Below are positions 1 to 14,478 of a DNA stretch of 64,000 nucleotides, in pieces. The stretch's first letter is position 1. The number at the start of each line of letters is the position of its first letter. The stretch lies in assembly GCA_963707955.1 (NCBI GenBank), contig OY970176.1, positions 128,001-192,000 of the forward strand, in the 5' to 3' direction. Below the pieces are notes generated by a model, which was not told the DNA's origin, made no database searches, and was given only the letters and a program-made list of their open reading frames with translations. The DNA is from Candidatus Bathyarchaeota archaeon. Lineage in GTDB: Archaea; Thermoproteota; Bathyarchaeia; Bathyarchaeales; Bathycorpusculaceae. Position numbers and translations under genes: made by a program.

Positions 1-2
1 GG

Positions 3-1046
3 TCGTCAATCGCGGGCTGGATTGCGCCCAAGTATGGAAACTTGTCCTTGCTCGCACGCGGCGAGACTCTTGAGGTCATTAAGAACCGGGGACTGAAGTC
101 TTACTTGAAAGGAGGGAGATTAACCGCAGCAGCGTTGCCTGTGCATGGCATAGGGTCGCTGGTCGAGATCGCACTGCCTGATGTCATCGTTATCACTGTG
201 AAGAATTACGACCTTGACACCACCTCCCACGGCCTGAGGGCACATCTGGGAGATCATGAACCCATCGTCGTAGCTTTGCAGAACGGCGTCCAGAACCAGC
301 AAGTTCTCCCCAGATACTTCGGCAGAGTAGTTTATGGCGTTGTCTGTTACAACGCTTGGCGGGATGGTCCTGGAGAAGTGGGACACGAGCCTCGGGGTTA
401 TGTCATTCTGGGCACGCCTGCAAATGACCTACAAGACGAGGCGCAAGCGGTTGCGAGGATCTTTGGGTTGGGCTTGGACTGCGTGACCACGGATCGCTTG
501 CAAGACGCAGTCCACTGTAAATTGGTGATCAACCTTGCGAATGCTTTGATGACGCTCGTGGGGTTTCAGAGGCGCCCAATCGGGTCCTTCAACCTCTTGG
601 TGCGTATGACGTTGAAGCTGTTTTGGGAAGGCATCCAGCTTCTTCAAGCAGCCGGGTTCCATGAACACTCTCTAGGGCCGATTCCGTCGTGGAGATCCAT
701 CAAGATGGGGGCCACGCTGCCAGCCTTCATGATGGGCGCCCTGTATAGGCTTAACACAAAAAGGCTCGGTCTGAACAGCATGGCTCAAGACGTTTTCGGA
801 GGCAGGACTACCACGGAATTGGAAACGCTGAACGGGTACATGCTGGACCTTGCCCGGCGAGCGGGATTCTCCACACCGATTAACGAAACCATTTACGAGG
901 TCGCGAAAGAGCGCTTTGGCCCGAATTTTCAGCCCATCTCTGAGCAGGAGTTGTGGGGTATGATTGAGCGAAAAGTGCGCCGGATGAAATCGAAGGGCAA
1001 CCTACAAAGCACAGCGCGATCTCTGCAGTCTTTAGCGTGCTTCTAA
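3..1046 (+). CDS. Ketopantoate reductase (PanE/ApbA)-family oxidoreductase, 5'-truncated by the window edge
   Basis: Frame is open from position 3 (SSIAGWIAPKYGNLSLLARG), the tail of a Rossmann GxGxxG helix. Motifs TVK.YD, LQNG, KLVIN, SMAQD and TE..LNG match PanE/ApbA. Confidence 0.8.
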   Translation, partial: SSIAGWIAPKYGNLSLLARGETLEVIKNRGLKSYLKGGRLTAAALPVHGIGSLVEIALPDVIVITVKNYDLDTTSHGLRAHLGDHEPIVVALQNGVQNQQVLPRYFGRVVYGVVCYNAWRDGPGEVGHEPRGYVILGTPANDLQDEAQAVARIFGLGLDCVTTDRLQDAVHCKLVINLANALMTLVGFQRRPIGSFNLLVRMTLKLFWEGIQLLQAAGFHEHSLGPIPSWRSIKMGATLPAFMMGALYRLNTKRLGLNSMAQDVFGGRTTTELETLNGYMLDLARRAGFSTPINETIYEVAKERFGPNFQPISEQELWGMIERKVRRMKSKGNLQSTARSLQSLACF

Positions 1047-1966
1047 CGGTTTTCCATTGCGTCTGCGATTATCAGATAGAAGGCTGCTAGTCCTTTCCAT
1101 TTTCCCCATTTCTCGGCGACTTTGCGAGCTTCTGTGCCTGAGATTTTTTTGTCGTGGCAGTAGTGGTGGGAAATGATTCTTCTCAAGCCCAGGTCATCAG
1201 CGGGGACAACGTCAAGCTTGCCCATTCCTCTGGCTATAGTGAGTTCAGCCGTCCAGACTCCTATTCCGCGTATCTTGTCGAGTTCGCTGATGATCTTTTG
1301 GGCATCATCGTAGCGTTTGAAACCCTCCAAGTCCAGCTTTCCGTCGGCAATCATCTTGGAAACCTCGTTGACGTACTCCGCTTTCTTCTGAGACAAGCCG
1401 CATCTGCGCAGTTGTTCAGGCTTTACAGAAGCCAGCTCCCGTGGCGTTGGATAAGCATAATACTCTTCGCCATCCAATCTGAGTGTCTTGCCGAAGGCTT
1501 TGACCAGTTTTGTCTCTAGAACGTGTGCTACGTTGAGCGAGATCTGCTGTTCGGTGATCGAGTCGATTAGAGCTTCAAAGACATTAGGCGTAGTAGGGAT
1601 TTTCAGCCCTCTCAACCTGTGGACGATGTGTGCAAGGACTTCGTCTTTCTTGGCGTGTTCGTAGAAGGGTTTGAGGTCCAAATCGATGTTAAGCAGGCCA
1701 CTCACCGTCTGTTTGGCGGCTGTTTTGTCGGCCTCCGATATGCTTTGATCTGATCTCAATTCAACTGATATTTTCGGGTCGTCTACGGTTCCTAACGCTT
1801 TCATGGTGGCGAGAATCAGCCTATCGTCGACTCGTACGATTTGCCAGAATTTTCCGTTTTCATACTTGCGGATGTTTCTGTCACCGTTAGAAAAGATGAT
1901 GGCGCTCAGGTTGAAATCAAAGGGTGGTGCGCACTTCAGAGTCAATGTTTCGGTGTGGGCCAACAT
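1043..1966 (-). CDS. alkA: DNA-3-methyladenine glycosylase II (AlkA family, HhH-GPD)
   Basis: FEALIDSITEQQIS, YPTP, GLSQKKAEY, HhH IRGIGVWTAE, PADDLG. Confidence 0.9.
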   Translation of the reverse strand: MLAHTETLTLKCAPPFDFNLSAIIFSNGDRNIRKYENGKFWQIVRVDDRLILATMKALGTVDDPKISVELRSDQSISEADKTAAKQTVSGLLNIDLDLKPFYEHAKKDEVLAHIVHRLRGLKIPTTPNVFEALIDSITEQQISLNVAHVLETKLVKAFGKTLRLDGEEYYAYPTPRELASVKPEQLRRCGLSQKKAEYVNEVSKMIADGKLDLEGFKRYDDAQKIISELDKIRGIGVWTAELTIARGMGKLDVVPADDLGLRRIISHHYCHDKKISGTEARKVAEKWGKWKGLAAFYLIIADAMENR

Positions 1967-2081
1967 GGTTCTCCTGCGGAGATTTGCCTACTCTTTTCAG
2001 ATTCATGTTAAAAAGGCTGCCCCTAGGACGTTTTCGCGAGGCCGCAAGGCAAAAATCAGTGATTGGCTAACCTAATCAGTT

Positions 2082-2912
2082 ATGAGACCTGATTATCAAA
2101 TAGTGTTTCTCGGGACGGGTGGCGGCCGGTTTGTGACAATGACGCAGAGGCGACGCACTGCCGGTATTCGGATCATTGGTGATGGACTGAATTTACACTT
2201 GGACCCTGGTCCCGGGGCGCTTGTGCATTCGATAGAGGAAGGGCTTAGCCCTCAGCGTATCAACGCTGTGCTTGTTTCACATTGCCATCCGGACCATTAC
2301 ACCGATGCGGAGATGCTGATTGAAGCAATGACGAGAGGTATGACTCGAAGACAAGGCTTGCTTGCTGCGCCTAAGAGTGTTTTGGAGGGCAGCGACGCGT
2401 GTGAGGTTTCGATCTCCAGGTATCATCAGCAAATGGTCGGACAAAAAATAGAAGTGGCGCCAGGGCTGAAGTTCGAAGTTGGTAACATCACCGTCTCAAC
2501 TACTGAAGCGAGGCACACTGATCCTGACGCAGTCGGTTTCAGGTTTGAAACTGGGCTCGGGGATTTCGCCTACACGAGCGACACGGAATATTATGAAGGC
2601 ATAGCCAAATATTATCAGGGACTCCGTCTGTTGGCTCTGTGCGTCATGAGACCTTCAGGGAAACCTTGGAAGGGCCACATGTCCACAGAAGACGCGATAA
2701 GAATTGTTGATGAAACTCATCCTGAGCAGGCTGTCCTGACGCATCTTGGGATGAGCATGCTTCTTCGGGGACCCGAAAAAGAGGCAATGCTGATTCAGGA
2801 GAAGACAGGTGTTCCAGCAATCTCTGCGGTGGACGGCATGGTCGTTCTTTTCGGCGAAAGCATCAAGATGGAGACAGGAAAGGGTCAGAAGGACCTGACA
2901 GGTTTTTTGTGA
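2082..2912 (+). CDS. MBL-fold metallo-hydrolase with C-terminal PIP-like motif
   Basis: FLGTGGG, DPGPG, HxHxDH (SHCHPDH), SDT, GH, THLG; ends QKDLTGFL. Confidence 0.85.
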   Translation: MRPDYQIVFLGTGGGRFVTMTQRRRTAGIRIIGDGLNLHLDPGPGALVHSIEEGLSPQRINAVLVSHCHPDHYTDAEMLIEAMTRGMTRRQGLLAAPKSVLEGSDACEVSISRYHQQMVGQKIEVAPGLKFEVGNITVSTTEARHTDPDAVGFRFETGLGDFAYTSDTEYYEGIAKYYQGLRLLALCVMRPSGKPWKGHMSTEDAIRIVDETHPEQAVLTHLGMSMLLRGPEKEAMLIQEKTGVPAISAVDGMVVLFGESIKMETGKGQKDLTGFL

Positions 2913-2964
2913 AGGATTTTTAACTCGCACCGCTTCATAGTTAGGCGTGAAGGATGTAAGGTCC

Positions 2965-3639
2965 ATGCGAATCGTGCTGCGAATAGGCGGTTCCATCGTT
3001 GCTTCGCCAATTAACCCGGTCTTAATACGCGAGTACGCTAATCTCTTGAGGGAATTGAAAGCGCAGAAGCATGAGTTGGTCGTTGTTGTCGGCGGTGGAA
3101 ACTTGGCGAGAGAGTTGATTGCTGTTGCTAAGGACGTCGGACTTGACGAACCAGCTCAGGACGAAATCGGGATTTCCATCTCAAGAGCCTTCGCCCAGCT
3201 TCTCATGAAAAAACTGGGCACCCTTAGCTGTGAAAGGGTTCCGCTGACGGTGGAGGACGCTGCAGAATGTCTCGCTAAGGGAAAGGTCGCCATCATGGGT
3301 GGTTTGAAGCCCGGCATGACAACCGACACGGTTGCAGCGATGGTCGCCGAGAGAGTGAAAGCCGACCTGCTGCTGAAAGCAACGGATCAAGAAGGTGTCT
3401 ATGATAAAGACCCAAGGAACCACCCAGATGCGGTGAAGCTAGATCATCTGAGCTTTGAAGACTTGGCGAGAGTGTTCTCCCAAGGCAAGCACGCGGCTGG
3501 TATTCATCAGATAATCGACCCCGAAGCCGTCAAGATTCTGAAGCGTCATCACGTTAGGGTTGCAGTTGTCAACGGGTTCAAAATCGAGAATGTCTTAATG
3601 GTCATCAAAGGAAAACATGTTGGCACATTGATTGACTAG
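2965..3639 (+). CDS. pyrH: UMP kinase
   Basis: [26 protein letters not shown]; ATG at 2965 chosen as start. Confidence 0.92.
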
Positions 3640-3805
3640 GCAAAATTCCTGTTCTCTTTCCAACAGGCTTGGCCGTCACTGTTTATGAGTCTGCGTAGAG
3701 ATATCAGTGCGCATTCGGGGCTATCCGAAATGGCGACGCAAAAACTTAAGGCCGTAGAAGCGCTGAAAACCTGTGGAAGAGCTGTGCGCAGGAGGTTTCA
3801 AAGGT

Positions 3806-4258
3806 TTGAGTAGACTTTACCCGAACCGGCCGATTGTGGGCGTCGGCGCAATTATCATACAGAATGGTAAGATTCTGCTCGAGAAGAGGAAAAATGACCC
3901 AGGAAGGGGCAAGTGGAGCATTCCTGGGGGCTTAGTGGAACTGGGTGAAAGTCTCGAAGAGACCGTGATAAGAGAGGTCCAAGAAGAGACTGGCCTCGTG
4001 GTTGATGCGCCTAAACTTATCGATGTTGTCAGCCAAGCTACTTTAGACGAAAGCGGTAAGGTGAAGTATCACTTCGTAATAGTCGACTACCTCGTCAAGC
4101 TTAAGGGCGGAACGGTTAGAGCCGCAAGTGACGCTGCAGAACTTGAGTGGGTCCCGTTTGACGAAGTTGAACAGAAGGATCTTATAAGAAGTTTCAGAGG
4201 CTTTTTCGAGAAGAACAGGAAGAGACTAGAGAAGATGATTTCTTCTTCCGGAGAATGA
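3806..4258 (+). CDS. NUDIX hydrolase (ADP-ribose pyrophosphatase-like)
   Basis: Nudix box GGLVELGESLEETVIREVQEETG; TTG start after GGAGG at 3791-3795. Confidence 0.9.
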   Translation: MSRLYPNRPIVGVGAIIIQNGKILLEKRKNDPGRGKWSIPGGLVELGESLEETVIREVQEETGLVVDAPKLIDVVSQATLDESGKVKYHFVIVDYLVKLKGGTVRAASDAAELEWVPFDEVEQKDLIRSFRGFFEKNRKRLEKMISSSGE

Positions 4259-4291
4259 CCAATGCTTATGCGATGTGCGATCATTAGTCAA

Positions 4292-5743
4292 TCATTCGAA
4301 GAAAAGTCTCGTTTCTCCCATGGTTTTCACATCCATTGCTTTGATTTTAGCAACGATCGGAAAGTCTCTCACTGCTTTTCCGAGGACGAGACAATTGTGC
4401 GGTGGCAGGTCTCTGGCTATTGATCTCACCGTTTCTGCATCTACTCTCGAAGCTCTTGAAACGACGTCCAAATCATGCTCGTTCGTGAAGTTGAAGAGGA
4501 ATATGTTGTCTGCTTGACGATAGATGTTTTCCCTTATCGTGTCAGGTTGATTGGTTATGAATGTTGTGAAGATGCCGAAATGGCGCATGCGTGTGACGAT
4601 GTCGTCCCAATAAGTCTCACGTAAGTAGAGGTGGGCTTCTTCTGCGAAGAGGAACACCGCCTTGAGCTTCCAGTTCGTCAGGGATTCAACGAGTCTTCCA
4701 AGAATGTGCTCGACGACTATCTGCCGGTCAATCGTCGAAGTGTTCCGCAGGTTTATGACTATGGCACCACCTTCTTCTTTTGCCTTCAGCAAGGATTCTT
4801 CTAGTAAAGCGGCCTCAGCAAGGTTGTCTGTGAAAAAGCCCGAGTTTACTAACGTGTGGTATCGTGAGAACAGTGCGTCGCGAACGTGTTGGTTGCAGTT
4901 GCAATTACGTATCGCTTCTCCTAAGTCATGCAATGTCAGGCTGTCTCTCTGTTTCAGTTCTTTCCATATGTGTCTAAATTCACGAGCAGATGTGCCTGGG
5001 AGATGAAGCGCGTGAACAAGGATGCCGAGTAAGACGTGTAAGCTCATCTGTTTCAGGGCTACCTTGAAGTTTTGTGAAGGCGTTAAAACGTGTATCTTGT
5101 CATGGTTGGTGTTTCTTTTGCCTTCAGATGTTATCCCCAGGCTGAGGTACTCACCGTTCAAGTCGAAGACGACGACTGTGGCCTTGTAGCCCAGCAGGTT
5201 TATCATCAACAGCTTGGACAGGTGGGATTTGCCTGTTTCCTTTTTTCCTGTTATGATGTTCAGTCTTCCATCTAGTGATGTGGCGTCTATCGTTAGAAGT
5301 GAGGAGTCTTTCATGGCGCCCAGGACTATTGGGAGTTTTCCGCTTATCTTGGCGAGCTTGAGCAGTGTCGAGATCGGTAGTTTTTTTATTGTCGATTGTG
5401 AGCGTGAGGGAAGCCAAGAGCTACTCGGGTTCAAGCTGTCGTTCTCGACGGTTGCTCTGATCTTGCAGATGAGCAGGCTGGCGTCTTGAATGTAGGTGAT
5501 GTGTGGAGCAATTTCAAGAGGATCAATGTCCTCGCCTTGAAGCAGTTCTCCACCGTCTGGCAGACTGCGAAGAAGCTCTTCTAGGACGCCTGGAACTGCG
5601 GCAAATTGCACGTCGATTACCTGCGCGATCAGGGCTCTTCTTGCTTCTTCGTCTTGAACGAGCAAGTAATCTCCTTTTTCGACGGTTTCGTTCGGGAAAC
5701 TCAGAACGTAGATCGCATTGCCCTCTTTTTTGTAGAGCTTCAT
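4292..5743 (-). CDS. herA: HerA-family ATPase/translocase (divergent)
   Basis: N-terminal HAS-barrel-like region, Walker A GKKETGKS, FDLNGEY, Walker B FAEEAH, MRHFG arginine-finger region. Start at MKLYKK (5743), directly after nurA. Confidence 0.8.
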   Translation of the reverse strand: MKLYKKEGNAIYVLSFPNETVEKGDYLLVQDEEARRALIAQVIDVQFAAVPGVLEELLRSLPDGGELLQGEDIDPLEIAPHITYIQDASLLICKIRATVENDSLNPSSSWLPSRSQSTIKKLPISTLLKLAKISGKLPIVLGAMKDSSLLTIDATSLDGRLNIITGKKETGKSHLSKLLMINLLGYKATVVVFDLNGEYLSLGITSEGKRNTNHDKIHVLTPSQNFKVALKQMSLHVLLGILVHALHLPGTSAREFRHIWKELKQRDSLTLHDLGEAIRNCNCNQHVRDALFSRYHTLVNSGFFTDNLAEAALLEESLLKAKEEGGAIVINLRNTSTIDRQIVVEHILGRLVESLTNWKLKAVFLFAEEAHLYLRETYWDDIVTRMRHFGIFTTFITNQPDTIRENIYRQADNIFLFNFTNEHDLDVVSRASRVDAETVRSIARDLPPHNCLVLGKAVRDFPIVAKIKAMDVKTMGETRLFFE

Positions 5744-5745
5744 GG

Positions 5746-6822
5746 TTAGCTCTCTCCTTTGCCGAAGGGTCCGAACAGAAGTTTGTGCATGTCTGGTCTG
5801 TTGATGATCTGAAGCCCGCATTTGCGCGTGATGAAGTGCTGCATTGCTAGCACTTCGTTGGCTGTGAATGTGCACAGGATGTGAGCTAACCGGAGGGTTT
5901 CAGGGTAGCTCTGCGAGATCAGGTCGTTGCCTAGTAGTCTCTCAACTGCTTCGACTCTCAGCTCGTGAGGAACCTCTGTGTCGATGTCGAGTCTGAAGGC
6001 ACAGTTTCCACTGCTTAACTTGGCAACGTAGACTTCTCCCAACGGAACCATTGGAGGCTTGAGTCTAAAACCGATGGTCTCAACCAGGTATGGAGGTCTT
6101 TGTTCGAACGTGAGATCTGTTATGAGGGAACCGTTGACTCTGAGGTTTGTCATTTTTGAAAAAGCCAAGATAACATTGCCTCTTTCCCTTCCGTCTTTCA
6201 GGATTTCTTTCATGCGACGTGTCGGCGTGTCTGCTGTTCCAGCGGTTAAGGAGCCGTCGAAAAGGATCAGTCCGTTGTTCAGGGTTTTTGTGAGCATCGC
6301 TTGTAACCATCTTTCGAGGAGGTTTGCTATTCGTGTCGGCATCTGCAAGAGGCTCGGCGCGCTTTGGTGGCCTGGTTCCCGTGTAGAAGCTAAATATGCT
6401 CTTTCCAGGGTGTTGTAGACTTCCCTTTTGTTTTCTTCCGTCACCTGAAAGATGAATGGGCCTATTCGAGTGTACCTGTAGTTTTCTCTCTGTTTCCAGA
6501 CATTTGCGCCTCTGACGGCTATCACTATTCCTGCGCATGTTTCGGCAATCTTCATGGTTGACGTGTCTACTGCTGCAACAACAGTTTGTTCATGTCGGGG
6601 TTTGAGGAGCATGGGTTCAAGTTTAAGCTTTAGTGTTTCAACGGTTTCCTCTGTGCTGACTTGTTGAATTAATTGCTCCTTTTGTTGAAAGTAGTGATTG
6701 TGTCGGTAACCTAACGAATATAAACTAAGTGTGGTGAACTGGTGTGGGAGCGTGGTGTCCATTGCAGGTTGTGGAAAGTTATATTTTGGTGTTGTTGCAA
6801 TAGGGTATTGTGCAATCACCAA
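5746..6822 (-). CDS. nurA: NurA-family nuclease
   Basis: AAVDTS, ILFDGSL, AFSK, FRLDI and YPETLRLAH match the NurA RNase H-fold motifs; adjacent to herA; start uncertain. Confidence 0.8.
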   Translation of the reverse strand: MVIAQYPIATTPKYNFPQPAMDTTLPHQFTTLSLYSLGYRHNHYFQQKEQLIQQVSTEETVETLKLKLEPMLLKPRHEQTVVAAVDTSTMKIAETCAGIVIAVRGANVWKQRENYRYTRIGPFIFQVTEENKREVYNTLERAYLASTREPGHQSAPSLLQMPTRIANLLERWLQAMLTKTLNNGLILFDGSLTAGTADTPTRRMKEILKDGRERGNVILAFSKMTNLRVNGSLITDLTFEQRPPYLVETIGFRLKPPMVPLGEVYVAKLSSGNCAFRLDIDTEVPHELRVEAVERLLGNDLISQSYPETLRLAHILCTFTANEVLAMQHFITRKCGLQIINRPDMHKLLFGPFGKGES

Positions 6823-6862
6823 GATTCACCAATAGCCAATTGTTTGAGGAGGACATATTTAA

Positions 6863-6891
6863 GTGTTGTGCATGTACAAGATGTACAACAC
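6863..6891. promoter_or_regulatory. Palindromic operator candidate in the nurA / wHTH-A divergent promoter
   Basis: GTGTTGTGCAT-N7-ATGTACAACAC (10/11 inverted repeat) immediately downstream of TATA-like ATTTAA (6857-6862). Confidence 0.5.
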
Positions 6892-6912
6892 AATAAACAA
6901 CAAGGTGAGCCA

Positions 6913-7314
6913 TTGACGGAGACAGAAGCAAAACAGCCGATACGGTTAAAGATGAAGATAGGTGAAATAGAGTTCGAGATTGAGTGCCAAGAAGATCAGC
7001 TGCAGACAACCGTAGACAAGATTCTCTCAACTGTGACTGAGAGGTTGAGAGAAACTCCTCTAATGATGGAGAGGTCCGCCCAGCCGCCAAGGGCTGAAAC
7101 CTGCAAGGGCATAATTCAGAAACTGTGGGAGGAAGGCTGGTTCGCAGTTGCCAAGGGCCTAAGCGAGGTGCACAGCGAGTTGGCAAGACGGGGCTTCCAC
7201 TATGACCGGACCGCGGTCGCCCATGCCCTGATCGACTTGGTCAAGGACGGCGTCTTGACGAGAGAAGGAAAACCCCGCAGGTACCAATACGCTCAAAAAA
7301 GACCGGCTTCCTAA
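6913..7314 (+). CDS. Hairpin + C-terminal winged-helix protein A
   Basis: TTG start after SD AGGTGA (6903-6908). N-terminus RLKMKIGEIEFEIE; C-terminus LSEVHSELARRG..AVAHALIDLVKDGVLTREG..YQY is wHTH-like. Confidence 0.75.
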   Translation: MTETEAKQPIRLKMKIGEIEFEIECQEDQLQTTVDKILSTVTERLRETPLMMERSAQPPRAETCKGIIQKLWEEGWFAVAKGLSEVHSELARRGFHYDRTAVAHALIDLVKDGVLTREGKPRRYQYAQKRPAS

Positions 7315-7333
7315 ACGATCTGCAATTGTATTG

Positions 7334-7852
7334 CTAGGCTAGAATGCCAGTTCTTGCCTTGATTCTTGGTAGAATGTCTTTTTGAAGCTGAACTAGGCCA
7401 AAGGTTGTGATCTTGTAAGTGTCGTCAGGGGTTTTCGTCACCATCTCGTTTTTTACGAGTTCGCCCAATCGTGTGCTCGTTATTTTTGCGTCTTTTCCGA
7501 GTTTTGCTTGGAGTTCTTCCTTGGAAAGACCATCGACTTGGGTCTTGCCCATTCGGCGTCCCATATGATTAGCTAGAAGCAGCAAGGCGAGAGTCTCGTT
7601 GTCCGTCAACTTGTTTCTTGGCACGAGTATGTAGGGGCCCTCTTCTGCAAAGGCCAAGACTTTCTCGCTGTCCTTAGCTAGGGTTTTCAGGTCAACGCTT
7701 AACGTCAGTTTTCTTGCAATTTCAAACGAAGGAAGTAGCTCGCCAAAGAATTTGTTCAGTAGCAACCAAACTTCTTCTGGGTTCCCTGAGAGTGTTTTTT
7801 CAACGTCCTTGTACCTGATGTGAACCATCAAGCTGCTTGGTTCTTCACTCAA
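7334..7852 (-). CDS. Hairpin + winged-helix protein B
   Basis: N-terminus HIRYKDVEKTLSG; C-terminus LSKEELQAKLG..TSTRLGELVKNEMV..YKITTFG is wHTH-like. Confidence 0.75.
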   Translation of the reverse strand: MSEEPSSLMVHIRYKDVEKTLSGNPEEVWLLLNKFFGELLPSFEIARKLTLSVDLKTLAKDSEKVLAFAEEGPYILVPRNKLTDNETLALLLLANHMGRRMGKTQVDGLSKEELQAKLGKDAKITSTRLGELVKNEMVTKTPDDTYKITTFGLVQLQKDILPRIKARTGILA

Positions 7853-8319
7853 CCGATCTTACCCCTGAGCTTGGCTAGGACTTCGTTTTCAACCCATCTG
7901 TCGCCTTGAATCGTGAGCTTAAATTCAGGTCTGTTGGGATCTGGTTTGAACACTTGCCCTCGCTTCGTCATTTCGTTTAGTCGAGCTGGGACCATGCATT
8001 TTATTCCGCTTGACTCTAGAAGCTTCGTTGTCTGCGCCGCAGTGTTCTTCTTCCCTTCTGAAGCATACAATGTCAAGCCTATCGCTTCATAGTGTGTTAG
8101 GTTTTCGTGGGCTACTATTACAGGCCCCTCTGTTGTGGATTCAACGATACCTTTCAGTTGAACCCCTGACGGAATCAAACGGCTTGAGACAAGGTCAGAC
8201 ACTTTTTGCATGAAATTGTCTGGAAAGTTCTCGAGTATCTTGAGGACTTCTTGGGGGTTCTCGCCCTCAACTATGATTTCACCGAAGGGCGTTTTGATTC
8301 GTGCTTCAACCCTGTTCAT
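7849..8319 (-). CDS. Hairpin + winged-helix protein C
   Basis: N-terminus RIKTPFGEIIVEG; C-terminus PARLNEMTKRGQV..FKLTIQG; 4-nt overlaps with both neighbours. Confidence 0.75.
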   Translation of the reverse strand: MNRVEARIKTPFGEIIVEGENPQEVLKILENFPDNFMQKVSDLVSSRLIPSGVQLKGIVESTTEGPVIVAHENLTHYEAIGLTLYASEGKKNTAAQTTKLLESSGIKCMVPARLNEMTKRGQVFKPDPNRPEFKLTIQGDRWVENEVLAKLRGKIG

Positions 8320-8816
8320 TCAGCGTCTCCTCGTGAACGTAGAGCTTCTTTTTCAGCGAGGATGTATACGTAGCCGGTGTTGGTGCTCCAACGTCTGATC
8401 TTTTCTTTCTTGACTAGCTCCATCAGGACCGCTGCGAGCGTGCGCACTGAGTGTTCCAGTTCATTTGCCTTTAATGCTTCGCTTAGCTCGTCGATCGTGC
8501 GTGGGCGCCACTTTCCCCAATCGGTTTCGAGAATTTTTAAGAGTGCCTCATCGAGTTTTGCCGTATACGATATCTGTGGGTATTGTTGGGATGGAGGTCT
8601 TTCTGCGTTGGGAGCCCCAGTCTTGACGGTTAGTGTTGCCACCTTCTTAGGTTTCACTTTTTCAAATGCCTTGTCGATGTCGCTTATCAGGCTCGGCAAG
8701 GCTTTCATCGTATCAAGAACTTGTTCGTAGGCCCCGGTGACCTCGACCTCATAGTCCCCCATCTTCACTCGAAGGGCAAAACTTCCACTGGTTTTTCTCG
8801 GTTTCTTCTGCTGCAA
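8316..8816 (-). CDS. Hairpin + winged-helix protein D
   Basis: N-terminus RVKMGDYEVEVTG; C-terminus PRTIDELSEAL..LAAVLMELVKKEKIRR..YVY. Confidence 0.75.
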   Translation of the reverse strand: MQQKKPRKTSGSFALRVKMGDYEVEVTGAYEQVLDTMKALPSLISDIDKAFEKVKPKKVATLTVKTGAPNAERPPSQQYPQISYTAKLDEALLKILETDWGKWRPRTIDELSEALKANELEHSVRTLAAVLMELVKKEKIRRWSTNTGYVYILAEKEALRSRGDAE

Positions 8817-8909
8817 ACCTATCCCAAGATATAGGAAAGTGACAACTCCTTTTAGGATTTGCGCATTTGGACATGTTACGATTTTCGATATATGTTGCAG
8901 GTGGGAAGC

Positions 8910-8949
8910 ATTGTATTAAATATTAAGATACAATAGTTGACGTTGTATC
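8910..8949. promoter_or_regulatory. Overlapping inverted repeats (TTGTAT/ATACAA half-sites) over a TATA-like box
   Basis: ATTGTAT-N11-ATACAAT (8910-8934) and GATACAA-N9-TTGTATC (8927-8949). Confidence 0.45.
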
Positions 8950-8974
8950 GCCTTCTCAAAGATGGTGAAAATCC

Positions 8975-9610
8975 TTGGCAAAGAAAGGGCTTTCCGTCTG
9001 GATCTTCAGCTCCCTGACGTTCGTATCGGTTGCGCACCTGATTGAGGCGATTTACGTTTTGGTTTCTGGAAGCGAAATCAAGCTTCTTAAGCTCTATCCC
9101 TTTGTCGGCGGGAGTTTGAGCGGTGTTTCGCCCGTTCTGTATCTATGGCTATCTGCTTTGGCGAGCTTGGTTTTTTGGGGGATGACATGTGCAATAGCTT
9201 TTGAGAACCCTATGGAAAAGCTCTTGAAGAAGGCGGTTGCAGACGCCAAGAAGCAGAGTGTTGCTGAGACCAAGGTGGTTGAAGATAAGAGTGAAATTCT
9301 CGATGCGATGTACGAAACGTTAGAGTCTAGCAGTGAGACTATCGCAAATGTTAAGGACATGATCTGCAACGTGAGGACAGAAGTGAAAGAAATTCAGCCC
9401 TTGGCGACGACCGTTGATCTGATCAGGCTAGAGTTGAACGACTTGGCGAAAGAAGTGGAAAAGCTCGAGGATAATGTGAAGTACTCTTATGTATGCTTGG
9501 CATGCGGAAAGCCTTTGTTGCCTGAATTCAAGATATGCCCATACTGTGGCGAGGATGCCAGACTGCTGAGGACTCCTGTCATAGCTGTGACTGATCAAAA
9601 GCAGAAGTAG
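8975..9610 (+). CDS. Membrane protein with coiled coil and C-terminal zinc ribbon
   Basis: Two hydrophobic N-terminal segments, heptad region, CxxC-x10-CPYCG. Confidence 0.75.
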   Translation: MAKKGLSVWIFSSLTFVSVAHLIEAIYVLVSGSEIKLLKLYPFVGGSLSGVSPVLYLWLSALASLVFWGMTCAIAFENPMEKLLKKAVADAKKQSVAETKVVEDKSEILDAMYETLESSSETIANVKDMICNVRTEVKEIQPLATTVDLIRLELNDLAKEVEKLEDNVKYSYVCLACGKPLLPEFKICPYCGEDARLLRTPVIAVTDQKQK

Positions 9611-9623
9611 GTTTCCATTGTTT

Positions 9624-11528
9624 CTATTCTAGGGCTTCTTTAAGCCTTTGTTTCAGCACCTTACTTACAAGTGCTGCGTTCGCCTTGCCCCGCAAGTTGT
9701 TCATGGCTATGCCCATTAGGACGCTGAAGCTACTTTCTCCATGCTTCTTGATCAATTCCTTGTTTTCCTCAACAATCTTGGTCACCAACTTCTCCAGTTC
9801 AGCCTGAGGGATGGCTTGCAAGCCAAGCTCTCTGATAGCTTCTTCAATAGTTCTGTCCTCATTCTTTGACAGCCAAGTGAACACTTCCGAGATTGCTTCT
9901 TTCGCAAGTTTTCCTTCCCCTACGAGGCTGAAGATGCCGCTCAGTTGTCTGTCTGACACTTTTTCCACTCTGATGCCGTCTCGTTTTATTGCCTTCAGAG
10001 TCTCGGTCATGAATGCTGCGATGGTTGTTGGTGGGACTTTACTCTGACTTACTATGTTTTCAAACAGTTCACTGTATTCGGAGTTCAAGACCTGCCTAGC
10101 CAGCTTGTCATTAAGCCTGTACTCTTTCTGCAGCCGTTCGAGTTTCTGTTCTGGGAGTTCTGGTAGATGAGAACGAATTTCGTCCACGTAGTCTTGTGAG
10201 ATTTGAACGGGTGGGATGTCTGTTTCCGGATACATTCTTGCTGCACCGGGGCGAGGTCTCATGTAGCGTGTTGTCCCGTCAGGGTTTGGTCCTCGCGTTT
10301 CTTGAGGTACGCCTGCTATCGCTTCTCGTGCTCTTTCAACCACGGCTCTTAACGCGTCTTCAGCGTTTTCCTGATTGTCTGCGACAAGAACCACGGCGTC
10401 CTCGTCATGGGCTTCAAGGTTCTTTCTCAGTTTTTCAACCTCTTCTGTCGTTATTCCGTAAGCTGGTAGCTCATCCGTGTGGAATATCCCCCCTACTCTT
10501 CCCCAAAACTTGGCTCTGTCAGCCATCTCTGTTCCCAGCCGCAGTCCAGGGCCTAGTTCCCATTTCAGGAGGCCCTTGAACTTCGGCAATTTAACGGCCA
10601 GAACTTGCTGCTTTTTCTCTAGGGCTTTTTGAATCACTTTGCACTTCGTATTCTTGAAGACATCTTCCACGTTGAAGAACTCGGCCTTCACTTGGTCGTC
10701 TTCAACTCCGCTCTTCCTTAGTTCTTCGCTTATTCTTATGAGGTTCAGCTGACGACGAACTTCGTACTCGACGACGATTGAAACAAGTTCGAGTTCTTGT
10801 AGACCTTTGATTTCTATGAGAGCTCCTCTAGGGATCGATATGTTTACGTCTTGGCGGATTGAGCCGAGGCCGCGTATTACTTTTCCAGTTGCTCTCAGTA
10901 TCCTTCCGATTGCGAGTGCCACTTCTTCGGCTTCATTAGGCGACTTTATGACTGGCGCGGTGGCAACTTCTATCAGTGGTATGCCCAAGCGGTCAATGCG
11001 ATATTTTATTGTGCTTCCTTTCTCTTCGCCTGTTTTTCTCGCAGCGTCCTCTTCTAGGCTTGCATGTTGAATTGGAACCGTTTTTTCTCCCACTTTGATT
11101 TCTCCGTTGAGGGCTACTACGCATGTTCTTTGAAAACCTGTGGTGTTTGAGCCGTCTATCACTGTCTTGCGCATCACGTGTATTTCGCCAACGGGGTTAG
11201 CATTCATCATTAGAGCCGCTGTCAGGACTGTTTTGACGGCTTCCTTGTTCAAGGCGTGGGGAGGTTCTTCATCCATCTCAACAAGGCATGACGTCGCATT
11301 GTTTGCCTCGTAGAGGATTTTGACTCCCTTTTGAAATTCGAAGAAAGCCGCAGGGTCCACTTGACCCAGCTCGCTCTGGGTCGGTCTGAGTCTGCGCAGA
11401 AAAGTTATTTCTGGTTCTTCTTTGAAGAGTGCTGGCTTGCAGCTACAGAACAGTTTCGTCGAAGTGTTCAGTTGCTGGTGGATTTCTAAGCCGACTATCA
11501 ACCCGATTTTTCCGTAATCTAGCTCCAA
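9624..11528 (-). CDS. gatE: Glu-tRNA(Gln) amidotransferase subunit E
   Basis: GLEIHQQL, DGSNTTGFQRT, DRLGIPLIE, RPGAARMYPETD. Confidence 0.97.
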   Translation of the reverse strand: MELDYGKIGLIVGLEIHQQLNTSTKLFCSCKPALFKEEPEITFLRRLRPTQSELGQVDPAAFFEFQKGVKILYEANNATSCLVEMDEEPPHALNKEAVKTVLTAALMMNANPVGEIHVMRKTVIDGSNTTGFQRTCVVALNGEIKVGEKTVPIQHASLEEDAARKTGEEKGSTIKYRIDRLGIPLIEVATAPVIKSPNEAEEVALAIGRILRATGKVIRGLGSIRQDVNISIPRGALIEIKGLQELELVSIVVEYEVRRQLNLIRISEELRKSGVEDDQVKAEFFNVEDVFKNTKCKVIQKALEKKQQVLAVKLPKFKGLLKWELGPGLRLGTEMADRAKFWGRVGGIFHTDELPAYGITTEEVEKLRKNLEAHDEDAVVLVADNQENAEDALRAVVERAREAIAGVPQETRGPNPDGTTRYMRPRPGAARMYPETDIPPVQISQDYVDEIRSHLPELPEQKLERLQKEYRLNDKLARQVLNSEYSELFENIVSQSKVPPTTIAAFMTETLKAIKRDGIRVEKVSDRQLSGIFSLVGEGKLAKEAISEVFTWLSKNEDRTIEEAIRELGLQAIPQAELEKLVTKIVEENKELIKKHGESSFSVLMGIAMNNLRGKANAALVSKVLKQRLKEALE

Positions 11529-12880
11529 TCGCAGCCACCTTTGTGTTGCTCACAACTCATCTTCTCCGCAAGGGTTCTTAGCGAAAACTCTCCCGCAATG
11601 TTTGTTTTCAATAGTCTCTTTGCCTCTTCGCTGTCCTCGGTCTGTCCAAGAACCCACATGAGTTTGACAAGAGCCGTCTCGGGAAGCATGTCCTCCAAGG
11701 GGATCACGCCTAGAGCTTGTAAATCACGACCTGCGTCGTAAACGTTCATGTTTACGCGTCCCCAGATACACTGAGACGTCATTGCAATGATAATGCCCTG
11801 TCCAACAGCTTTTCTCAAGGCCTCGTAACAGGCTTTGCTGATGTGACCCAGACCTGTGCCTTCAATGACTATGCCCTTGTACTTTTTCTCTGTATAGAAA
11901 TGTATGATTGCCGGGTCCATTCCAGGGTAGAATTTTATCAACGAGACGTTTTCTTGGAAGTCTGGCCTTAGCATGAGTGTTCTTGATCGGTCTCGTTTCT
12001 GATAGTCTTGTGTTAGCATGACTATTTTGTCTTTTTCTACCCTCGCAATCGGTGTTGCATTCACAGACTTGAAAGCGTCTCTTCTGCTCGTGTGGCATTT
12101 TCGGACTTTTGTTCCCCTGTGAAATGCTATGTAGTTGTCTGAGGGCGTCTCATGCATTGCTACTACTACTTCAGCGAACGGCGCTTTGGCCGCGGCCCAG
12201 ACAGCTCCCAAGAGATTTGTAGCGGCATCTGAGCTCGGGCGATCTGCTGAACGTTGCGAGCCAACGATTATAACTGGGGCTGGAAGGCTTTGTAATGCGA
12301 AGCTAAGGGCTGCGGCAGTGTATCCCATGGTGTCTGTTCCGTGGGCTACGACGACGCCGTCGACTCCTTCTGACATCTGCTTTGCAACGGCATGAGCGAT
12401 TTGAGTCCATTGTTGGGACCCAATGTTTTCGCTGAAAAGGCTCAGAAGTATCTGGGTTTCTATGCGTGCCACGTCTGCCAGTTCGGGGACAACGCTGTAG
12501 AGGTCGTTTGCGGTCAAAGCTGGCCTAACGCCGCCTGTTCGGTAATCCACGCGGCTGGCTATTGTTCCACCCGTGCTTATTATGGTGGTTCTTGGAAGCT
12601 CTGGCTTCTGTTGTGGAAGAGGTGGCGCTGCAAAGGTCGGTTCTATGCCTTCTCCGACTTTCTCAACCTTCGTGTCTGCCGTTATGGCTATGCCGATGTT
12701 GTAACCATTTTTCAGCTTCACGACAACGTGCTTTTCATCACCGTACTCAGATCGCGGGATCAGAATTCCTTCGTAGACCTCGTTTTCTCTGGTTACACGA
12801 ATCACATCGCCTATGTTAGCCCGAGCCTTTTTGATTGCCTCAAGGGCTTTGCCTCGGTAGCCCGTTTCTTTTTCAGCCAT
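11519..12880 (-). CDS. gatD: Glu-tRNA(Gln) amidotransferase subunit D
   Basis: KLKNGYNIG, STGGTIASRVDY, HGTDT, GSQRSADRPSSD. Confidence 0.97.
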   Translation of the reverse strand: MAEKETGYRGKALEAIKKARANIGDVIRVTRENEVYEGILIPRSEYGDEKHVVVKLKNGYNIGIAITADTKVEKVGEGIEPTFAAPPLPQQKPELPRTTIISTGGTIASRVDYRTGGVRPALTANDLYSVVPELADVARIETQILLSLFSENIGSQQWTQIAHAVAKQMSEGVDGVVVAHGTDTMGYTAAALSFALQSLPAPVIIVGSQRSADRPSSDAATNLLGAVWAAAKAPFAEVVVAMHETPSDNYIAFHRGTKVRKCHTSRRDAFKSVNATPIARVEKDKIVMLTQDYQKRDRSRTLMLRPDFQENVSLIKFYPGMDPAIIHFYTEKKYKGIVIEGTGLGHISKACYEALRKAVGQGIIIAMTSQCIWGRVNMNVYDAGRDLQALGVIPLEDMLPETALVKLMWVLGQTEDSEEAKRLLKTNIAGEFSLRTLAEKMSCEQHKGGCDWS

Positions 12881-12882
12881 TT

Positions 12883-14478
12883 TTAATTCTCCAACGTTTT
12901 TGACATGTAAACTCCATCGTAATCGTAACCGAACCGCTTGTAGTATTGCTTTGTACCAAGGGCACTTATAACTAAAATCTTCTTAAAACTGTACTCTTCC
13001 AGAGTTATGCGCTCCGCTTGGGCGAGCAGAATGCCTCCGTAGCCCTTGTGCTGCCAGGCTTTTGCAAAGTGTTCGCCAACGGGGACAAGTGAACCGTAAA
13101 CATGCAGTTCCCGCACTATTGTGCACATTGTGGCTTTCACTTCTGGTCTGTGCGCCTTTTCAGAGGGAACCCTAAGTCTCAGATAGCCGATCAGGATGTC
13201 GCTTTCAGGGTCTTCTGCGGATATGAAGATTTCTTGGCCTTCTGAGGCCTTGTATCGTGTGGTTAGAGTCCGGATTTTTTCTGGGTCAACGTTTACGTTA
13301 TCGCTTCTCAGCCTGTGGCCGACTTCTCTGCAGCGTATACACCTGCATCTAAAGCCTTTTTCTTGAACCTTCTTCTGCACTAGTTGGCGGAGGTTGCTCT
13401 TGTTGACGCCTGCAACTATCAGGGGCGCAGGGATATCGCGCTGGACTCGCATCACGCGTATCCACGGCGGTATGATTCTTTTGACTTCTGCGATGAGGTC
13501 TGCTGCTTCCTCGTTTGTGTAGGGTGTGAACGTGCCTTGACGGTACCATTCATAGGCTTTTGTGTCTTTCAAAACTAAGCATGGATAGATTTTGACCATG
13601 TCTGGTTTGAATTTCGGGTTGGTGAAAATTGTCTTGAAGGCTTCAAGATCTTGTTCTCGGTTGGTGCCGGGAAACCCAGGCATCAGATGGTAGACGACTT
13701 TCAGCCCAGCGTCCTTCATTATTCGTGTTGCCTCAACAACTTCTGCGAGTGTATGTTTTCTACCAACGAGATGATAGATTCTGTCGCTTGGGTATTGAAC
13801 GCCCATTTCCACACGGGTTACACCCATGTTGAGCATTTGGTCCACGTGTGCTTCTTTCGCCCAATCTGGACGCGTTTCAACAGTTAATCCCACGTTACGC
13901 ATTCTGCTCGTTTCTGCGTTCTTCTTCGCCTCTTCCAGACTGGCTGAATCTTTCTGAGTGATTGCATCCAGGCAGCGTTGGATGAACCAGGTTTGGTAAT
14001 CTGCTGGAGTGGCAGGAAAAGTTCCTCCCATGATTATCAGTTCTACCTTGTCAACTTGGTGTCCTATTGCTTTCAACTGTTGGATGCGCGTCTTCACTTG
14101 CAAGTAGGGGTTGAAGTCGTTTTGCAGGCCTCGCATTGCTGCGGGTTCAAAGCCAGTGTAGCTCTGGGGAACTCCCTGTTTTGGTCCTCCTGGGCAGTAG
14201 GCGCAGGGCTCATCTTGTGGGCATGGGTATGGCTTAGTCATTGCGGCCAAGACTGTGACGCCTGACATTGTCCGTGTTGCCTTTCTTCGTAGCAGTGGGA
14301 GAAGTTTGCGTTTTTCTTCTTGCTTGAGTATGTTTATTATTTCCGAGTTTGAGGGTATCCTTTGGAGCCGGTACTTGGAGGCCGCTTTTGCCTTTGCGCG
14401 GTCCAGATCGCTGGAGCTAGGTGCGGGAATGTGCATGAGATTTCTGATTATTTCTTCTATTGGTTTGTCCTCGTTCAA
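12883..14478 (-). CDS. elp3: Elp3 radical SAM/GNAT tRNA U34 acetyltransferase
   Basis: CP-x4-CAYCPGG, ETRPD, KIYPCLV, CIRCRE, RELHVYG, QHKGYG. Confidence 0.95.
   Translation of the reverse strand: MNEDKPIEEIIRNLMHIPAPSSSDLDRAKAKAASKYRLQRIPSNSEIINILKQEEKRKLLPLLRRKATRTMSGVTVLAAMTKPYPCPQDEPCAYCPGGPKQGVPQSYTGFEPAAMRGLQNDFNPYLQVKTRIQQLKAIGHQVDKVELIIMGGTFPATPADYQTWFIQRCLDAITQKDSASLEEAKKNAETSRMRNVGLTVETRPDWAKEAHVDQMLNMGVTRVEMGVQYPSDRIYHLVGRKHTLAEVVEATRIMKDAGLKVVYHLMPGFPGTNREQDLEAFKTIFTNPKFKPDMVKIYPCLVLKDTKAYEWYRQGTFTPYTNEEAADLIAEVKRIIPPWIRVMRVQRDIPAPLIVAGVNKSNLRQLVQKKVQEKGFRCRCIRCREVGHRLRSDNVNVDPEKIRTLTTRYKASEGQEIFISAEDPESDILIGYLRLRVPSEKAHRPEVKATMCTIVRELHVYGSLVPVGEHFAKAWQHKGYGGILLAQAERITLEEYSFKKILVISALGTKQYYKRFGYDYDGVYMSKTLEN

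Follow-up and report, generated by a model that had tools for sequence, protein, structure and literature searches.

Background

The NurA-HerA pair is regarded as the core archaeal machine of DNA-end resection, and we know of no dedicated DNA-recognition or control subunit described for it. Canonical NurA-HerA genes lie in herA-mre11-rad50-nurA operons, as reported for Sulfolobus and Pyrococcus (PMC3326311, PMC4351679). We studied a 64,000-nucleotide stretch (the window) of the genome of a Candidatus Bathyarchaeota archaeon, corresponding to positions 128001-192000 of a single 2.35-Mb contig, in which a NurA-type and a HerA-type gene (nurA2 and herA2) are accompanied by four small genes named A, B, C and D. 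The products of A-D are four ancient paralogs of an undescribed two-domain protein, i.e., an N-terminal hairpin-helix module of ~45 residues followed by a winged helix (wH), and they are probably a dedicated DNA-binding control or targeting module of NurA-HerA in Bathyarchaeia and in other classes of the phylum. A previous reading of this DNA made without database searches (the sequence-only reading) had proposed a hetero-oligomeric DNA-binding complex working with the nuclease and its motor, with a role in chromatin, segregation or sensing. Positions are those of the window unless stated otherwise.

Relatedness and fold of A, B, C and D

Family profiles were built for A-D from orthologue alignments of 20 loci of the same order and compared with hhalign. 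Results showed that the A family is homologous to the D family (probability 97.1%, E 4.7e-11, 127 columns) and the B family to the C family (probability 97.4%, E 1.1e-11, 152 columns), and that the N-terminal modules alone connect both pairs (A+D vs B+C: probability 96.6%, E 6.5e-10, 39 columns), against a control probability of 0.2% for the N-module compared with the wH. The N-module profile recognized exactly four genes in the genome at E <= 1, namely A-D. A shared architecture with two sub-pairs, A/D and B/C, is what the sequence-only reading had described, and all four peptide strings quoted there are present in the proteins.

The AlphaFold2 model of C (predicted local distance difference test score, pLDDT, 88.7) presented a hairpin (residues 4-19) followed by helices (22-48), a second, small hairpin (59-68), the wH (76-135) and a C-terminal helix. 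In that of A (pLDDT 74.1), a hairpin (10-25) and a helix (27-47) are connected by a disordered linker to the wH (64-128). Fold searches were made with the wH parts of these two proteins. Residues ~70-156 of C matched MarR/PadR/AspA/F-93/RosR-like wH structures with Z scores of 9-10.7; among them, the pNOB8 centromere-binding protein AspA (Foldseek, VIA; template modelling score 0.71-0.75 normalised by target, Z 9.2) was tied with dozens of MarR/PadR regulators. The A wH had many wH matches, the top one being the Hop2 wH (2mh2; Z 10.0, root-mean-square deviation 1.7, 64 aligned), tied within 1 Z unit with Fur-type regulators. A-D are thus putative DNA-binding proteins, and their N-terminal module is a candidate new oligomerisation domain. 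ESCRT-II, GINS and TFIIF-like readings were set aside, as those architectures misfit one wH per protein and the ~45-residue N-module seen in the models. A complex prediction for B, C and D with A as partner scored 0.01 against a mark of 0.32, evidence neither way.

The sequence identity of C across the order was 47-84%, which exceeds the usual level for local regulators. A Thr-Cys pair opening the wH of A (residues ~63-64) showed no or almost no variation among 20 A sequences representing several classes, and a second cysteine, in the A hairpin, was kept in Bathyarchaeia only. Speculatively, one or both cysteines might be a redox-sensing site.

Searches of Pfam, NCBIfam and PADLOC gave nothing above the cut-offs for A-D, with scores of 12.3 bits for MarR (cut-off 24.6), 16.6 for Penicillinase_R (22.6) and 14 for Lrs14 (90). 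When the alignments of the four families were used as queries against PDB sequence profiles, nothing scored below E 0.02, and Pfam searches with the four N-modules alone returned chance-level matches only (E >= 0.15). The sequence-only reading knew of no named system with this layout, and A-D indeed fit no family in Pfam, NCBIfam, PDB sequences or PADLOC. Related sequences are abundant: there were 3802 related database clusters for C and 2414 for A, every one of them called either 'hypothetical' or 'predicted transcriptional regulator', and the B/C superfamily had 657 representatives at 50% clustering. All matches in the ESM Atlas were to clusters of archaea without a name (Bathyarchaeota, Nitrososphaerota) or to low-share HTH families; the clusters resembling A were mostly labelled Nitrososphaerota. 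Literature searches of the full texts, supplementary files excluded, found no description of wH partners of NurA-HerA in the texts covered, and the accessible text of a 2026 review on NurA (PMC13748450) mentions neither 'winged' nor 'paralog'.

Conservation of the linkage within Bathyarchaeia

Two samples of Bathyarchaeia were compared: 41 relatives, from genus to order, and 80 species found with the A profile. A and NurA2 were present in the same 35 of the 41 relatives, always adjacent and divergent. Neither was found in five genomes (G010, 63% complete; G017, 64%; G023, 75%; G027, 93%; and G040, 97%), and G033 gave weak A-like matches only, coming from a D-like paralog, and no NurA2. B had a match in 35 of the 41 relatives, and the A, B and NurA2 queries each found one copy in G000. 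In the second sample, NurA2 adjoined A in all 71 loci whose upstream sequence reached 1.3 kb or more and was followed by HerA2 in 69 of 69. B, C and D were located within ~9 kb downstream of A in 39 of the 48 loci with full flanks, and B was at most 150 bp from A in 15 of the 58 loci having B. The association of the whole quartet with nurA-herA, as first proposed, thus stands in part: A is strictly tied to the pair, whereas D-C-B is a separable operon with its own promoter element, linked to gatDE more often and lying 26-5836 bp from A in related species. The locus was syntenic in the 80 species, placed among housekeeping genes (UMP kinase, gatDE, elp3), and gatDE was directly ahead of the wH genes in L020, L031, L046, L052, L056, L142 and L143.

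Other orders of Bathyarchaeia (loci L139-L143) presented co-directional, partly overlapping operons in which three or four wH paralogs precede nurA and herA. The gene order was C-B-B-nurA-herA in L140 and the same in L141, where nurA is split over two reading frames (143 + 230 aa); C-B-B-D-nurA-herA in L143; C-B-B-D followed by a more divergent NurA-HerA pair in L139; and C-B-D-nurA-herA-metallophosphoesterase-AAA_23 in L142, the last two being Mre11/Rad50-like. Hence a D-type gene can be found directly upstream of nurA within one operon, and the wH module accompanies at least two NurA-HerA subtypes. The linkage advanced by the sequence-only reading is real and old, extending over several orders and classes (see below) and including single operons.

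Two further observations concern these loci. In L143, two different NurA-HerA pairs (positions 1-2176 and 2233-4736) are in tandem downstream of one wH quartet. A 4.1-kb contig in a record titled Candidatus Acidoferrum sp. (L095) contained HerA2, NurA2, A (82% identity to the window A) and the start of B; it is probably a Bathyarchaeia contig mis-binned as an acidobacterium.

Linkage in other classes and possible roles of the module

The A profile matched 83 of 301 genomes of the phylum at E <= 2e-28, 59 of which were labelled as other classes. In 11 of 11 other-class loci examined (L044-L054), A was divergent from a NurA-HerA pair and one to three B/C-type genes were beside it; gatDE was also nearby in 3 of the 11. 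Four of them (L049-L051 and L054) had a more divergent NurA-HerA type, missed by tblastn with NurA2 and HerA2, whose identity was given by Pfam for both proteins in L049 and L050 and for HerA in L051, and by sequence likeness for the remainder. The HerA-type gene adjoining A in L051 (3342-5852, negative strand) has an intein (Pfam Intein_splicing, E 5.9e-20). Since the arrangement has been kept across many archaeal lineages, A-D are probably the machine's own control or targeting module.

B/C-type genes were more widespread than A, being found in 199 of the 301 genomes, some lacking A, with many weak E-values that are possibly generic wH cross-matches. At three loci (L055-L057), the stretch examined contained genes of the A/D or B/C type and no NurA. 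A different explanation would be that A-D are independent small wH regulators or chromatin proteins, and that their proximity to nurA-herA and gatDE reflects only the inheritance of gene order (an uber-operon and tandem duplication). The occurrence of B/C-type genes in genomes without A and NurA2, the equal linkage of D-C-B to gatDE-elp3 and the separate conserved promoter of D-C-B are consistent with it. Nevertheless, gene order rarely outlasts class-level divergence without selection, so that its conservation between classes counts against inherited order without shared function; the strict co-occurrence and adjacency of A and NurA2 (35/35 and 71/71), the B/C-type genes adjoining A-NurA-HerA in 11 of 11 other-class loci and the reading frames overlapping nurA in other orders argue in the same direction, and we consider this explanation unlikely. 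Among the roles suggested by the sequence-only reading, chromatin and segregation received no specific support.

The overlapping co-directional wH-nurA-herA operons of L139-L143 suggest another possibility, that A-D are structural partners of the enzymes: a hetero-oligomer formed through the hairpin-helix module would bind DNA ends, lesions or specific sites and physically recruit, load or restrain the HerA2 hexamer and the NurA2 dimer, acting as a targeting subunit and not (or not only) as a transcription factor. The presence of the module next to at least two NurA-HerA subtypes, once together with Mre11/Rad50-like genes, and the high identity of C agree with this possibility, as do some fused proteins. 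In P0388, a B/C-type wH (E 6e-23) is fused to a D-type wH (E 3.5e-17), both hairpin modules being absent; P0392 and P0393 resemble it, although their B/C halves match weakly (E 1.7e-5 and 1.7e-3); and in P0241 a Ser/Thr kinase precedes two B-type wH units in tandem. On the other hand, wH-wH fusions are rare (3 clusters in 333 candidates), no fusion of a wH paralog with NurA or HerA was seen in the loci examined, B/C-type genes occur without NurA2 in some genomes, and D-C-B is up to 5.8 kb away from A in this order. We regard structural partnership as a tentative alternative. Other fusions included P0284 and P0301, in which an unassigned 200-residue N-terminal domain (PD-(D/E)xK-like motif by eye only) precedes a complete B-type protein; P0346, which combines DUF488 with a B-type protein; and P0333 and P0359, in which a C-type wH is preceded by a hydrophobic N-terminus that, by eye, has membrane segments.

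A gene for an 8-oxoguanine N-glycosylase/DNA lyase (NF002305) was located directly after herA2, overlapping it in places, in five of five loci (L044-L048); four of the five passed the NCBIfam cut-off and the fifth scored 176.9 vs 183, suggesting a nurA-herA-ogg operon. The next gene is RsmB-like methyltransferase in L044 (Pfam), and in L045-L048 it is alike by eye only. In the window, herA2 has a Nudix gene at its 3' side, which showed generic Nudix matches (45 bits, under the MutT cut-off of 97.9); a Nudix gene was next to herA2 in 60 of the 64 Bathyarchaeia loci with sufficient sequence. It is conceivable, at a rather low level of confidence, that A-D form, by means of their shared hairpin-helix module, a hetero-oligomeric reader of DNA lesions or DNA ends that physically loads or gates NurA-HerA. 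Such a reader, kept throughout Thermoproteota, would supply a targeting subunit that archaeal end resection has so far lacked; by analogy, its function might be comparable to that of Ku, Nbs1 and CtIP-type adaptors or of the FtsK gamma domain. In that case, the near-invariant cysteine opening the wH of A and the glycosylase or Nudix gene beside herA2 would tie the machine to oxidative DNA damage.

A second, divergent NurA-HerA pair

NurA2 reached 22.6 bits with Pfam NurA (cut-off 21) over profile positions 2-118, the N-terminal half only. A 19-sequence alignment showed conservation of an Asp (xVDxS), a DG, a Lys and a YPxxL..AH/AD motif, among which are the positions we take to be catalytic. 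HerA2 scored 49.7 bits with DUF87 (cut-off 23.2) and has a Walker A motif, GKKETGKS; its matches to the HerA equivalog models were weak and partial (24-40 bits vs cut-offs of 800-970). At genome positions 910667-916621, ~780 kb from the window pair, genes for a Rad50-like protein, a phosphoesterase with a Mre11-like N-terminus (by eye), HerA (913949-915490) and NurA are in a row, forming a cluster with the canonical layout. The pair in the window is therefore a second, divergent one, distinct from that beside Rad50: the NurA-HerA partner claimed by the sequence-only reading is present, and it is not the Rad50-linked pair. Linkage to a mre11-rad50 operon was absent from the window and present in the relative L142.

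HerA proteins are also found in anti-virus systems, and HerA2 has partial matches to mad8 and the HerA models of PADLOC (E 5.7e-16 to 1e-3) and to NCBIfam HerA_antiphage (40 bits, cut-off 800), which could point to a HerA-NurA effector with wH sensors. Against this, PADLOC had no match for NurA2, A, C or D and a chance-level match only for B, the locus has a fixed place among housekeeping genes in dozens of species, searches with A, B and NurA2 each found one copy in G000, and the arrangement is kept between classes, its operon including a repair glycosylase or Mre11/Rad50-like genes. A defence role is accordingly very improbable.

Close to the Rad50-linked pair, tandem 10-bp ATTCACCAAT-type repeats, two exact copies and a looser third (by eye), were observed at genome positions 910270-910330, upstream of a small wH-like open reading frame (ORF) ~380 bp beyond the rad50 3' end, with a RelE-like ORF (by eye) beside it. 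The A-nurA2 spacer contains the identical 10-mer; the genome has 6 copies only, with a rough chance estimate of 0.01-0.02.

The A-nurA2 control region

The sequence-only reading had placed A and nurA-herA on the two sides of a divergent promoter, and the 147-bp spacer at 6766-6912 agrees with that arrangement. The spacer contains TTGNNCAA-type palindrome-like boxes, one of them directly past the A TATA, and is near-invariant across the order: in 76 Bathyarchaeia species, the majority-base fraction was 0.89 (0.93-0.96 in blocks) vs 0.63 at the third codon positions of A. By eye, a TTG(C/T)(G/T)CA(A/T)-type box, e.g., TTGCGCAA or TTGCTCAA, was directly past the TATA before A in most of the 11 other-class loci, being less exact or more distant in L049, L051 and L054. 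A search with nhmmer found the whole spacer region once in the genome.

Two ideas about this region were discarded. A regulon for the A-type box was rejected since TATA + TTGYGCA occurred at just 5 genome loci, beside unrelated genes (ABC-transporter-like, rubrerythrin-like and others, by eye). An RNA hairpin in the A 5' region, an idea that arose from three compensatory-looking sequences (TGAACA..TGTTCA, TGTTCA..TGAACA and TGTACA..TGTACA), was dropped, the halves being non-complementary in most of the 76 species.

A dense box array next to a wH protein could also be seen as centromere-like, with AspA-like wH proteins on the array and the FtsK/HerA-type motor moving DNA in a segregation or condensation device; the match of the C wH to AspA is in line with this. 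That match is shared with dozens of MarR/PadR regulators, as mentioned above, such a device fits neither the repair genes of the operon nor a nuclease partner that keeps its active-site motifs, and no ParA/ParB-like ORF was seen by eye in window positions 1-14000, where no dedicated search was made. We consider it highly unlikely.

The explanation we favour for this genome, with middling confidence, is that A controls the divergent promoter. A would bind the conserved boxes of the spacer, as the presumed box-binding protein, and a protein bound at the box directly past the A TATA would block polymerase recruitment; from that position, A would control both itself and the operon of the nuclease and motor. 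The products of D, C and B would come from one translationally coupled operon and probably bind one another, and possibly A too, by way of the N-module they share. The element upstream of D, ACGTAAATYCTAAAAG in relatives and a close variant in the window, differs from the A-type box, and no A-type box was seen by eye in 48 D-upstream regions; having its own promoter element without that box, D-C-B need not be controlled by A.

This lack of the box ahead of D is one of several points that weigh against A-D as a joint control module. The protein binding the boxes is a guess, and three to four regulator paralogs translationally coupled to an enzyme pair are unusual for plain transcription factors and fit structural subunits equally. 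Whole-length homology between the sub-pairs is weak in hhalign (A-C, E 0.08; B-D, E 0.0047), the A N-module was modelled at low confidence (pLDDT 67-70), and the architecture of B and D comes from homology, folding having covered C and A. Finally, some genomes that yielded neither A nor NurA2 (G023, 75% complete; G027; G033; G040; and 5 of 6 genomes of genus g33) contained B/C-type genes, so that one or more roles of these genes must be independent of the pair.

An unnamed family with thousands of database clusters has stayed beside NurA-HerA across orders and classes, in the same operon in some lineages. If its members are regulators or targeting subunits, they would give a handle on where and when archaea resect DNA, and on why many genomes have two or three NurA-HerA pairs.

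Gene organization of the locus

The positions of genes and control elements are given in Table 1. The starts of HerA2, NurA2 and A were set by orthologues and promoter geometry, the longest ORFs (527, 358 and 190 aa, respectively) overshooting them. HerA2 starts at the ATG at 5740, which gives a 482-aa form whose first residue is where the orthologues begin to align; the start of NurA2 is the ATG at 6765, and its transcript is probably leaderless because this ATG is ~20 nt past the TATA box; A starts at the TTG at 6913, with GGTGA ahead of it. D overlaps C by ATGA and C overlaps B by TTGA, the 4-nt couplings reported by the sequence-only reading, and herA2 begins 5 nt past the nurA2 end. A and B are convergent with a 19-bp gap. 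This tail-to-tail position of A and a B-type neighbour was seen in several classes, the 3' ends overlapping by 26-62 nt in L047, L048 and L053.

Divergent from D, and with a conserved promoter region common to both, a gene at 8975-9610 (positive strand) encodes 211 aa. The protein has hydrophobic segments near its N terminus, a coiled coil and, at the C terminus, a zinc ribbon; most close relatives have it, and it matched no family above the cut-off.

Table 1 Genes and putative control elements around the nurA2-herA2 locus (window positions)
Feature	Position	Strand	Remarks
Nudix hydrolase	3773..4258	+	Convergent with herA2; conserved neighbour
HerA2, divergent HerA/FtsK-type ATPase, second copy in the genome	4292..5740	-	Pfam DUF87
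NurA2, putative divergent NurA-type nuclease	5746..6765	-	Pfam NurA and motif alignment
A-nurA2 divergent control region	6766..6912	.	147 bp
nurA2 TATA	~6778-6787	-	
TTGTGCAA box	6808-6815		
CACCAA repeats	6817-6822 and 6827-6832		10-bp period
A TATA	~6855-6863		Spacer also holds CAATTG
TTGTGCAT box	6866-6873		Directly past the A TATA
TGTACA repeats	6873-6888		
GGTGA	6904-6908		Shine-Dalgarno-like site
A, hairpin-helix module and wH, A/D type	6913..7314	+	TTG start, 133 aa
B, hairpin-helix module and wH with C-terminal helix, B/C type	7334..7852	-	172 aa; last gene of the D-C-B operon
C, B/C type	7849..8319	-	156 aa; best conserved of the four
D, A/D type	8316..8816	-	166 aa; first gene of the D-C-B operon
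Promoter element upstream of D	8848..8866	-	From 48 D-upstream regions, by eye
gatE, gatD, elp3	9624..14478	-	Conserved co-directional neighbours of D-C-B

Comparison with known systems

As in canonical archaeal HerA-NurA end resection, a NurA-domain nuclease gene is followed here by that of a HerA/FtsK-type ATPase, and in L142 a pair of the NurA2-HerA2 type is followed by Mre11-like and Rad50-like genes. The window pair differs in being a second divergent copy without mre11-rad50, and the four wH paralogs do not belong to the system as described. Known HerA anti-phage systems, with an effector partner such as Sir2 or DUF4297 in a variable island, are unlike this locus, which is syntenic among housekeeping genes and in which PADLOC had no match for NurA2, A, C or D.

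Among wH proteins, the C-terminal domains of C and A superpose with MarR/PadR/AspA/F-93/Lrs14-type DNA binders (Z ~8-10.7), and the C-terminal helix of the B/C types is also like that of PadR/AspA-like proteins; the boxes beside the A TATA would be compatible with operator binding of the MarR/PadR type at the protein's own promoter. In contrast with MarR/PadR/BlaI-type regulators, A-D reach no curated family cut-off, have an extra N-terminal hairpin-helix without a family match and are in fixed linkage with a nuclease and a motor. With regard to the AspA-ParB-ParA segrosome, the C wH resembles AspA no better than MarR/PadR.

Two systems in which wH domains assist DNA-processing machines offer analogies. 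Hop2-Mnd1, a eukaryotic heterodimer of paralogous wH proteins assisting recombinases, is similar in its paralogous wH subunits and its recombination and repair setting, and the Hop2 wH was the top structural match of the A wH, in a tie with Fur-type regulators; the wH of Hop2 and of Mnd1 is N-terminal and precedes coiled coils, the reverse of the domain order of A-D, and no sequence relation was found between them and A-D, leaving an analogy only. FtsK gamma is a wH that reads KOPS sites and orients a motor of the FtsK/HerA superfamily to which it is fused. By analogy, A-D may likewise provide wH DNA readers to a motor of the same ATPase superfamily, with the difference that here the wH proteins are encoded by separate genes.

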